A stretch of 64,000 nt of DNA from Candidatus Tayloriibacteriota bacterium (GTDB lineage: Bacteria > Patescibacteriota > Minisyncoccia > Phycocordibacterales > PALSA-1337), in assembly GCA_037129895.1 (NCBI GenBank), contig JBAXUB010000005.1, forward strand, positions 597-64,596, read 5' to 3'. The notes beneath the pieces are model-generated. The model saw only the letters and a program-made list of their open reading frames with translations. It was not told where the DNA came from and ran no database searches. Shown one piece after another: positions 52,237 to 55,200 of the stretch. The translations under genes were made by a program, and so were the position numbers. Position 1 is the stretch's first letter, and each line of letters begins with the position of its first letter.

Positions 52237-55200
52237 ATGGTATTATTTATTGTATGTATGAGCTTGATCACACACACACACACACACACACACACACACA
52301 CACACCGCAGGTCCTCAAATATTGTATCGCGGTTGCATGAAATTAAGAGAGTACTAACTCCCTCTAAAAAATTCTACGCTGCCATTCTTTCCAGTATATT
52401 TTTTGTAGTTTGTATTTTTTCTTTTGTTAATGTCGCAAGGGCAGATATTACGACGGGATTGATAGGTCATTGGACGTTTGATTCGGCTGATACTAATTGG
52501 GCGGGAAATACAACAGCAGACATATCGGGTAGTAACAATACAGGTACACTAACAAATTTTTATTCAGCCACGAGTACAACAGGCGGACATATTTATGAGT
52601 CATTATCATTTGATGGAAATAATGACTATGTGTTAGCGGGAACTATTGCGGGAGGTACAATTACAGGATCTGTTTGTTTTTGGGTAAAAAGATCTGGAAG
52701 TAAGGCAAATCCTCAACTCATTAATTTTACCGCTAATGGAGGAACAGGGTTTGTATACTTGTATACCAATAATAGTACGATTGCCAAGACTTCAGGTACT
52801 GTATATGTGGATAGTCAAAGAACTACCGCTTTCCCAGGTGACGGTGAATTTCATAATGTTTGCGTTACGGGTATGTCTATTGTTTCAAATGGTAACACTT
52901 ATATTGGAGCAAATTCATCAGGAACCGGATCGTGGCTAGGTCTGCTTGATGATTTCCGCATTTATAATCGCACGCTTTCTGCAACAGATGTAGCTCAATT
53001 ATATAATACTGGATTTACGCCAATTGTTACCACTTCAGGTGCCTCATCGATAACCGATATTTCAGCTACTCTCAACGGCTCCACAGATATGGCTAATGCA
53101 GCTTCTTCTACTAGTCGTGGTTTTGCATACGGCACAGATTCGACTTTAAGTACAGTCATAGCTACAACAACTGAAGCAGGTGGACCATTTGGTTCTGGTG
53201 TTTTCACTCAAAATATTTCAGGTCTGACGGAAAATACAACATATTATTTCAGAGCATATTCTGCAAATGCTACGTCCACAGGTTTTGGAAGTATTTTATC
53301 ATTTACATCAGGTGTTCCTGCTTCAGTATCTCCGCCGTCACTTCTTGAGGCTAATTTTTCTCTAATCACTCAAGTATCTGCTGTAGCTTCTTCTACCATC
53401 ACATCTGTCGGTGGATCTAACGTATCAAATCGTGGTTTTGCATATGGTACAGACTCTACTTTTGCCAATGTCATTGCTACAACTACAGAAACTGGTGATT
53501 TTGGAACTGGTCAGTTCAGTAGCAACCTCACATCACTAATTTGTAATACTACATACTATGTTCGCGCTTATGCTGTAAATTCTTACGGAACCAGCACAGC
53601 TTCGTCAGCCAACTTCACCACATCACCATGTGTACCAAGTATACCAACTAGCGTCTCTGCTGTTAGTACATTACGTAATCAAGCCACAATCACATTCACA
53701 CCTGGCTCCGATGGTGGTTCATCCATCCTATATTACTTAGCTTCATCTACTCCGGGAAACATCACAGCTACATCTACAGGTTCACCTATTACAGTTACAG
53801 GACTTACAAATGGAGTCGTATATACTTTTCAAGTTTATGCAGTGAATGCAGTCGGTACTAGTACTCCCTCAGTCTTTTCTAATGCGGTTACTCCAGATGC
53901 GACTGCTACAGGTCTCGGTGGGCATTGGACATTCGATACTACAAATACCAACTGGTTAGCAAGTACCACAGCTGATAGTTCTGGTAATGGTAATACGGGT
54001 ACGCTAACTAATTTCTATTCTTCGACGAGTACAGTAGCAGGTTTTGACAATCAAGGGTTATATTTCAATGGCGGAACTGAATATATTGACGCTGGAACCG
54101 GTCAAGGTTTGAGTCCAACATCAGCAATTACTATATCTACTTGGATCAAGCCTATAGGAAAAAGTAATTCAAATTATCTTGCAGTGGTAGGGAAAAAAAA
54201 TAGTTATTTTCTTGATATACGAGACGATGGTATTATTTTGTTTTATTTAACTGGAGTAAAAAATTGGCTTACACAAACGACAAGTGATAAAAATCTATTT
54301 GATGGAGTCTGGCACAATCTGGTTGCAAAATATGATGGATCGATTCAGTCTATTTATATCGATGGTTTATTTATTGCGTCAACAACAGCAACTGGAAACA
54401 TTAATACGAGCTTTGATAATTTGCAAATTGGCAGAAGGGGGACGACAATACATTATAAGGGTTCAATGGATGATGTACGTATTTACAGTAGTAGTTTAAC
54501 GGAATCAGAAATACAATCACTTTATCTAAGCTATGGTCAAACGCGTACCCCTCAAACATACTACATATCTTCAACTTTAGGTAATGATGAAAATGATGGT
54601 CTTTCGGAATCTACTCCATGGCAAAATATTGATAAGATCTATAAAATAGCTTCGCTTCCTTATGGATTTGTTCCAGGAGATCAGATTTTATTGAAGAGGG
54701 GTGATACTTGGGAAGGTCAAATTCGACTGGATCGTATAATAGGGACAGGATCAGATCCGATCACTATTGGTGCTTATGGATCAAATTCGGATCCAAAACC
54801 GATTATATACGGAGATGGAAGAAATTTAACATGGACTGCAGTCGATGGCTATTCAGGGGTATACGAAGCGAATATTGGAGCAGGGAGTAATATAACGAGC
54901 GTATTTGAAAATAGTACAGCTTATACTTCTGGTACTTCTGGAAATGTCTACACTCTTTCCCCGGGACAGTGGGGTGTAAAACCTTTCGGACGTAGTGATC
55001 TTGTATGGATACGTACTCAAGATGGTGGTTTGCCAAGCAATATCAGAGTGTTTCGCTATACGACAATTTCTATGAAAGATAGCGAAAATATTGTTATTGG
55101 AAATCTTGATTTACGAGAGACATTTATTGCCATTTATGCCTATGGATCCGATTCAATTACTTCACGAAATATAAATACACTTAACACATTAGATAGTGCA

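Follow-up and report, generated by a model that had tools for sequence, protein, structure and literature searches.

The stretch analysed here (the window) comprises 64,000 nucleotides (nt) of a Candidatus Tayloriibacteriota genome (assembly GCA_037129895.1, contig JBAXUB010000005.1, positions 597 to 64,596 of the forward strand). Our subject is the 5' end of one of its genes, which encodes a giant secreted protein and contains a long (CA)18 dinucleotide tract; an earlier reading of these letters (the original prediction) had proposed this tract as a candidate slipped-strand phase-variation switch. Upstream of the giant gene lie a tRNA-Gln and a large serine recombinase flanked by inverted repeats (Table 1). 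The product of the giant gene, with its predicted signal peptide, its two LamG domains and its fn3 domain, has the features of a surface or host-interaction protein, and the relatives of the genes neighbouring it are found in Paceibacteria/Taylorbacteria-like metagenome-assembled genomes (MAGs) of Patescibacteria.

Table 1. Features at the 5' end of the giant gene and in the neighbouring element (n, number of CA units; aa, amino acids; ORF, open reading frame)
Feature	Coordinates	Strand	Remarks
tRNA-Gln	49810-49881		upstream of the giant gene
Large serine recombinase	49821-51434	minus	Resolvase + Recombinase + Zn-ribbon
192-nt inverted repeats around the recombinase	49878-50069 and 51754-51945		98% complementary
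Terminator-like GC-rich hairpin (52004-52016 / 52036-52048) and T-rich run	52004..52073	+	tail of the element
Giant secreted protein gene, 1717 aa	52237..57390	+	2 LamG domains, fn3, weak sub-threshold C-terminal CarboxypepD_reg-like match
ATG 'alpha'	52237..52239	+	ORF frame at n=18; AATCATGG in common with the first ATG of L095
ATG 'gamma'	52254..52256	+	second frame; 28-aa peptide at n=18, full-length protein at n=16, 19, 22
ATG 'beta'	52258..52260	+	ORF frame at n=18; 11 nt before the tract
(CA)18 dinucleotide tract	52269..52304	+	read as (Thr-His)6 in the assembled phase; proposed hypermutable element
TTG, in-frame alternative start	52333..52335	+	29 nt past the last tract base; ATT in homologues
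TGA closing the frame of ATG 52254 at n=18	52338..52340	+	frame reading
Family-leader remnant	52346..52371	+	AGAGAG + GTACTAACTCCCTCTAAAAAA (= V L T P S K K); motif matches L087, nearly L095
TAA closing the third frame	52355..52357	+	frame reading
Remainder of the signal peptide	52372..52443	+	hydrophobic core and VNVARA/D cleavage-type site after residue 69; aligned with homologous signal peptides

Regarding the tract itself, direct reading and Tandem Repeats Finder agreed on 18.5 copies with 100% matches (52269-52305), that is, (CA)18 followed by a C. The perfect 36-bp tract of the original prediction was therefore confirmed, and all its coordinates were correct. Translation of the ORF also bore out that the tract lies between ATG 52237 and the signal-peptide region and is read as a Thr-His repeat in frame with the 1717 aa: the N-terminus is MVLFIVCMSLI(TH)6RRSS...KRVLTPSKKFYAAILSSIFFVVCIFSFVNVARA/DITTG, where (TH)6 precedes the signal-peptide core. 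Long dinucleotide tracts had been said to be otherwise absent from the window, and actually the runner-up in a regular-expression census has 5 units. A 20-nt CA probe gave 0 matches in 100 dinucleotide-preserving shuffles. Furthermore, the window has no G/C homopolymer of at least 7 nt, and no other hypermutable-looking tract was found in it. In 1.04 Mb of related Patescibacteria loci there were only two dinucleotide tracts of at least 6 units, one of them in a leader homologous to the one studied here (locus L012). Rfam gave sub-threshold, low-complexity matches on the tract, and the sole Rfam family over 49500-53000 was the tRNA-Gln. Thus, the tract is a perfect repeat of hypermutable length whose unit is not divisible by three, as slippage between frames requires.

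Upstream of the tract, start codons occupy two of the three frames: ATG 52237 and ATG 52258 share one, ATG 52254, which was absent from the original prediction, lies in a second, and the third has no ATG. Simulating tract lengths of n=14-22, we obtained products of ~1,708-1,719 aa from ATG 52237/52258 at n=0 mod 3, products of ~1,710-1,714 aa from ATG 52254 at n=1 mod 3, and only peptides of 24-35 aa at n=2 mod 3. The earlier statement that one CA unit gained or lost would turn the protein off was therefore too simple, because one added unit puts ATG 52254 in frame and the gene is fully off only at n=2 mod 3.

Most genes of the window have no Shine-Dalgarno sequence and carry a TATAAT-like box 6-9 nt 5' of the ATG (e.g. 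at 11182, 20544, 29191, 31532, 43040 and 59669), which suggests that leaderless mRNAs may be the norm in this organism. As listed, 30 of the 33 ORFs of the window start with ATG and one with TTG. At the giant gene, a -10-like TATTAT (52241-52246) lies 7 nt before ATG 52254, the spacing typical of the leaderless-looking genes, and 11 nt before ATG 52258, and the gap between a TATAAAT box (52229-52235) and ATG 52237 is only 1-2 nt. Since both boxes sit upstream of the CA tract, the tract is probably in the transcribed region.

The strongest evidence on the function of this 5' end came from homologous genes (loci have L numbers and proteins P numbers). Related Patescibacteria surface-protein genes have a conserved 5' leader, in which ATGs in two frames are followed by a (GA)n tract and then by the motif GTA-SWA-RCT-CCC-TCT-AAA, and this motif places a TAG (G-TAG-AAG) and a TAA (CTC-TAA) in the two other frames. 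In the window, 52346-52368 reads AGAGAG GTA CTA ACT CCC TCT AAA, so that the motif is preceded by a GA run and followed by the signal-peptide core as in the family; the window contains CCCTCTAAA a single time. The window gene, L095, L088, L085 and P0001 have homologous signal peptides and mature N-termini. The best protein match to the window N-terminus is P0001/L083, and the closest homologue is L095/P0124, with a near-identical signal-peptide region and ~90% identity to the window protein over the C-terminal 280 residues.

The comparison with L095 shows how the two kinds of repeat are related. Its (GA)8 aligns exactly with the AGAGAG of the window, therefore the GA tract has decayed in the window lineage and (CA)18 is a different, upstream repeat in the leader. 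The sequence AATCATGG at 52234-52241 matches the surroundings of the first ATG of L095, and the distance from the second ATG to the GA tract in L095 is the same 11 nt as that from ATG 52258 to the CA tract. The homologue in the window of the second L095 ATG is ATG 52337, which is not in frame and whose reading stops at 52355. Thus, the window gene shares with the family the downstream leader motif, the signal peptide and ATGs in two frames that again precede a dinucleotide tract, but its GA run has been reduced to 3 units and its long tract is CA, ~40 nt further upstream.

The GA-leader loci came from several searches. A degenerate pattern of the motif matched eight JGI metagenome contigs, seven of them with the leader on an ORF, and gave 0 matches in IMG/VR; a profile search and look-ups contributed L093, L094, L095 and nine further proteins, and the leader profile found 12 representative proteins at E<=0.001. 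All the carriers have a signal peptide and most of them are giant (~900-2,860 aa), with varied domains: NHL, Big_7, beta-helix, LamG, fn3, GDSL lipase and a C-terminal peptidoglycan-binding domain (PG_binding_1). The leader is nevertheless not limited to giant genes, because L094 (1037-1303, 88 aa) and P0126 (174 aa) encode small secreted proteins.

The flanks of the tract are conserved in these loci and its length is variable, with all three phases represented: 3 GA units in L085, 6 in L083, 8 in each of L086, L087, L093 and L095, 9 in L012 and in L088, 10 in L091, 11 in L084, 12 in L089 and 14 in L094, the longest tract seen. The gene in L012, a genome contig with the recombinase element of the window where the divergent neighbour is a 1660-aa secreted protein, starts ATG ACC CAT AAA CGC CAT GCG ATT CAC (GA)9 GTA GAA GCT CCC TCT AAA, and P0001/L083 has ...GCG ATT AAC (GA)6 GCG GTA GAA GCT CCC TCT AAA. 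The leaders show two readings. One is ...A-I-N/H/D-(ER)n-V-E-A-P-S-K (L012, L088, L089, L083, P0125, P0127, P0129 and P0131) and the other is M-(x)-R/L-L-T-(RE)n-R-V-E-A-P-S-K (L084, L086, L093, L095/P0124, P0126, P0128 and P0133). Past the tract, P0129 and P0133 differ at a single one of 1239 residues (1238 identical), whereas their leaders are MKSYDAIN(ER)3V and MVRLT(RE)2RV respectively. Counted from the residues, this would correspond to (GA)9 against (GA)8, a frame-changing difference of one unit between near-clonal alleles. L084 and L086 are ~99% identical around the start besides the tract, which is (GA)11 in one and (GA)8 in the other, three units apart.

In most homologues no start codon (ATG, GTG or TTG) lies between the tract and the hydrophobic core, as judged from translations by eye and not from a systematic scan, and therefore the GA tract must be translated in them. 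In L091, three such codons (a GTG and two ATGs) stand right where the core begins. This locus (n=10) has no in-frame ATG, and a TAA shuts the frame just 5' of the tract; it is thus a candidate off state. In L087 the arrangement TTGAAG-17-TATCAT-6-ATG, whose spacing was read by hand, fixes the start 26 nt before (GA)8, which is consequently inside the reading frame.

From these observations we consider it probable that (CA)18 switches the giant surface-protein gene at the level of translation, by slipped-strand phase variation with start codons in two frames. The homologous leaders support the original prediction in this respect, since their (GA)n tracts vary from 3 to 14 units across all three phases and near-identical alleles differ by one or three units. 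Slipped-strand mispairing in replication would add or remove CA units, and translation would start at one of ATG 52237 and 52258, in one frame, or at ATG 52254, in another. Because the ATGs fill two of the three frames, it would depend on the tract length whether the signal peptide and the mature protein of 1,650 residues are read in phase with any start. At n=0 mod 3 the full-length protein would be made from ATG 52237/52258 with a (Thr-His)n N-terminal extension, at n=1 mod 3 it would be made from ATG 52254, and at n=2 mod 3 there would be only short peptides ending at TGA 52338 or TAA 52355. The expected outcome is a stochastic, heritable and reversible variation in the display of a giant adhesin-like surface protein within the population. 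Variation of the CA tract itself and an adaptive role of the switch are inferences, and the same applies to the choice of ATG: the assembled n=18 would be an 'on' state if the main start is 52237 or 52258, and 'off' or 'low' if it is ATG 52254.

Several points weigh against this interpretation. No second sequence of the CA locus was found that could show heterogeneity of the CA length. Exact-protein look-ups with the giant protein (three alternative starts) and four neighbouring genes returned short Logan contigs and one ENA contig, none of them reaching the tract; an exact search with the CA flanks gave 0 matches in the JGI metagenomes and IMG/VR; and the best match in a protein search with the N-terminal 359 aa had 44% identity, hence no sibling. 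The ENA contig (L002), which is independent, ends inside the inverted repeat and before the tract, leaving the latter without a second witness. There is also an ascertainment bias, as most GA-leader loci came from a pattern that fixes the downstream motif, although the profile search and L012, which was reached through its recombinase, are independent of that pattern. A consensus promoter scan of 51300-52600 found no promoter, and ATG 52254, which has the best -10 spacing, is not in frame when n=18. The off fraction would be below that of a simple switch, because two of the three phases have an in-frame ATG. Finally, a start at TTG 52333 would give a normal 37-aa signal peptide and leave the tract untranslated, and the open frame 5' of this TTG is unremarkable (probability ~0.3 by estimate, plus a 1-in-3 phase).

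This last point leads to the best of the alternatives, a start at TTG 52333 (or an mRNA start nearby), which would place (CA)n in a 5' leader or promoter, with graded tuning of expression (through Z-DNA-prone CA/TG, spacing or mRNA structure) or with no effect. As the original prediction stated, this TTG lies 29 nt past the tract; it is in frame, and the resulting signal peptide has a canonical length; a weak -10-like TATTGT lies 7 nt upstream of it; and, as the ancestral GA switch has decayed and ATG 52337 is out of frame, some new start is needed. Nevertheless, TTG is the less favoured candidate for the true start: the homologues read ATT here, most of them have no start between the tract and the core, and TTG is rare in the window. 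Moreover, the homologues start upstream of their own tract, the TTG has no Shine-Dalgarno sequence, and three ATGs in a two-frame layout like that of licA (see below) stand 11-32 nt upstream of the tract. Repeat 'rheostats' are known in H. influenzae hif, with (TA)n, and in N. meningitidis porA, with poly-G, and nadA, with TAAA, where the tract lies between or upstream of the -35 and -10 elements and alters transcription. The window resembles them in having a hypermutable simple repeat beside a surface-protein gene, and they would apply if the TTG start is real, but no promoter pair spans the CA tract and no sigma-70-type pair was found in 51300-52600. All in all, we regard an untranslated tract as unlikely.

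A neutral or tolerated microsatellite, that is, a Thr-His repeat expanded by chance in a dispensable N-terminal extension, without regulatory role, appears improbable. Among the homologues, both the length and the sequence of the part preceding the hydrophobic core vary, and CA/AC codons are stop-free in every frame, which would fit such a repeat. However, long dinucleotide tracts are otherwise almost absent from the window and from 1 Mb of related DNA. A perfect tract of 18 units decays fast unless slippage is ongoing. In the relatives, this leader carries another unstable tract, whose alleles differ in frame, and this speaks for selection having repeatedly favoured a repeat here.

The adjacent recombinase raised the question of whether the tract is a recombination site or part of an inversion switch. 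A 28-nt inverted match of 79% between a TG-rich segment (51691-51718) and the end of the CA tract pointed that way, as did the adjacency of the element to leader-bearing giant genes in the window, L012, L086 and L093. We rejected this match as a recombinase site, because of its low complexity and because neither L012 nor L004 conserves the TG-rich segment. The comparison with L018 places the end of the element at ~52168, ~100 nt short of the tract, and the leader occurs without the element in L087, L083 and L095. Furthermore, the element lies at tRNA-Gln in L003, L004, L005, L006, L008, L009, L011 and L018 with a constant orientation (9/9 loci including the window), so a DNA-inversion phase switch was rejected and we treated the element as a separate mobile element; the rearrangement between L084 and L086 is probably an IS110 insertion at a hairpin. 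This explanation is therefore very improbable. Least credible of all is that the tract is a product of faulty assembly or sequencing, or of a chimeric join in low-complexity sequence, since, even with contig L002 stopping before the tract, both flanks are homologous to the leaders of L095 and L087 (AATCATGG...ATG upstream, AGAGAGTACTAACTCCCTCTAAAA downstream) and the frame is kept across the tract.

The phase-variation switch proposed here is of a mechanism type that is already known, although it is homologous to neither of the two systems that it resembles most. In licA of the Haemophilus influenzae lic1 locus, a (CAAT)n repeat lies in the 5' end of the reading frame, with three initiation codons in two of the three frames (PMC2212159). 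The window has the same arrangement, its ATGs being divided between one frame (52237 and 52258) and a second (52254) with the third left empty, and so do the GA-leader homologues with their AIN(ER)n and M(x)RLT(RE)n readings. However, the licA repeat is a tetranucleotide and that of the window a dinucleotide, the licA product is a cytoplasmic choline kinase and not a giant secreted protein, there is no sequence homology, and switching was experimentally shown for licA, whereas for the window it is deduced.

The second system is that of Helicobacter pylori outer-membrane protein genes such as oipA, where CT dinucleotide repeats in the 5' region cause slipped-strand on/off frameshifts (PMC10564699). 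As in the window, the repeat is a dinucleotide and falls within the 5' coding part of a gene for a surface protein or adhesin, but the bacterium is a Gram-negative pathogen, the proteins are unrelated and the tracts are shorter, typically 5-12 CT. Further outer-membrane protein genes of H. pylori with 5' CT repeats are sabA and hopZ, and we know of no two-frame start arrangement in this group.

Repeat-driven phase variation is a textbook trait of host-adapted pathogens. The Patescibacteria (Candidate Phyla Radiation) are believed to lead a life attached to host cells, and when it comes to attachment or to phage or host recognition, the first proteins to consider are their few giant surface proteins. 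A full-text literature search found no report of repeat-mediated frame-shifting phase variation in Candidate Phyla Radiation/Patescibacteria; the nearest case is a Gracilibacteria surface protein with an in-frame repeat of 9-mers (PMC6851277). If the switch is real, Patescibacteria would hedge their bets on the display of giant adhesins, and consensus MAG sequences may present such genes as 'broken' or with odd starts for biological reasons and not by error. The hypothesis would then be checkable in existing metagenomic reads, through repeat counts at a conserved and searchable leader motif.

A broader and rather doubtful extension is that these leaders form a portable 'contingency leader' of Paceibacteria-type giant adhesin-like genes. 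It would consist of a promoter (with a G7-G8 spacer run in some loci), two-frame starts, an unstable dinucleotide tract and the stop-trap motif, and would be kept hypermutable through tract turnover, GA having decayed in the window, with CA upstream instead. In one lineage it would stand beside the serine-recombinase element that targets tRNA-Gln, and both together would make a hot spot that puts different giant surface genes under stochastic control, i.e. phase and antigenic variation in free-living episymbionts rather than in pathogens.

The G7-G8 run lies upstream of GA-leader genes between TTCCTTTA(T/A)AT and TG(A/T)TATACT, in a position like that of a promoter spacer (L012 ~9180-9260 on the minus strand, L084 2135-2142, L086 ~9221-9228, and L088). 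It is G7 in L088 and G8 in L084 and L086, and could be a second hypermutable tract acting on transcription. In L084 an IS110-family transposase (653-1735) is inserted at a GC-rich hairpin that immediately precedes a near-identical copy of the giant-gene start of L086, and this copy has a 2-bp deletion 150 nt into the gene. We also looked at a hairpin that pairs the last GA units with CUCCCUCU (AGAG.GAGU-loop-RCUC.CUCU in L012, L088 and L087, and at 52346-52367 of the window), where the G/A difference of the motif keeps the pair (U-G vs U-A). The hairpin was predicted in all the leaders, with z-scores of only -1.0 to -1.7, and +0.7 in the window; the fold is statistically indistinguishable from shuffles and we do not claim it.

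Regarding the neighbouring element, it looks mobile and extends over 49878-52168 of the window, at the 3' end of tRNA-Gln, with a conserved 220-nt tail; it is also present in L003, L018, L012, L086 and L093. No direct repeat of the 3' end of tRNA-Gln that could mark an island boundary was found in the window. The terminator-like tail leaves ~160 nt for a promoter of the giant gene, and only ~70 nt of non-element DNA precede ATG 52237. Among the other 79 recombinase loci only L012 has a leader-like gene, so that the recombinase and the leader are neighbours through lineage-specific synteny rather than by rule. Relatives of the recombinase are encoded in more than 430 candidate stretches of Patescibacteria genome contigs, and a large number of these contigs break just upstream of it. 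Each arm of the inverted repeat contains a GC-rich hairpin with a G-rich loop. At 49821-50069 the last ~85 codons of the recombinase cross the left arm and overlap tRNA-Gln on the opposite strand; the 537-aa extent of the protein is conserved at 88-93% in L003, L004 and L018.

Beside the recombinase of L011 (~8880-8900, minus strand) there is a 1336-aa ORF with a G8 run in its signal-peptide codons (MKNNSIWGGYF...) and the signal peptide out of frame with the main ORF, which may be either a real off state or a Nanopore homopolymer error. In the window, a free-standing LAGLIDADG endonuclease-like ORF (49100-49801) lies directly before tRNA-Gln. Further upstream, the CTP synthase (45563-47419, 618 aa) has a GATase match spread across 276 residues, and this stretched match suggests a possible insertion in the enzyme.

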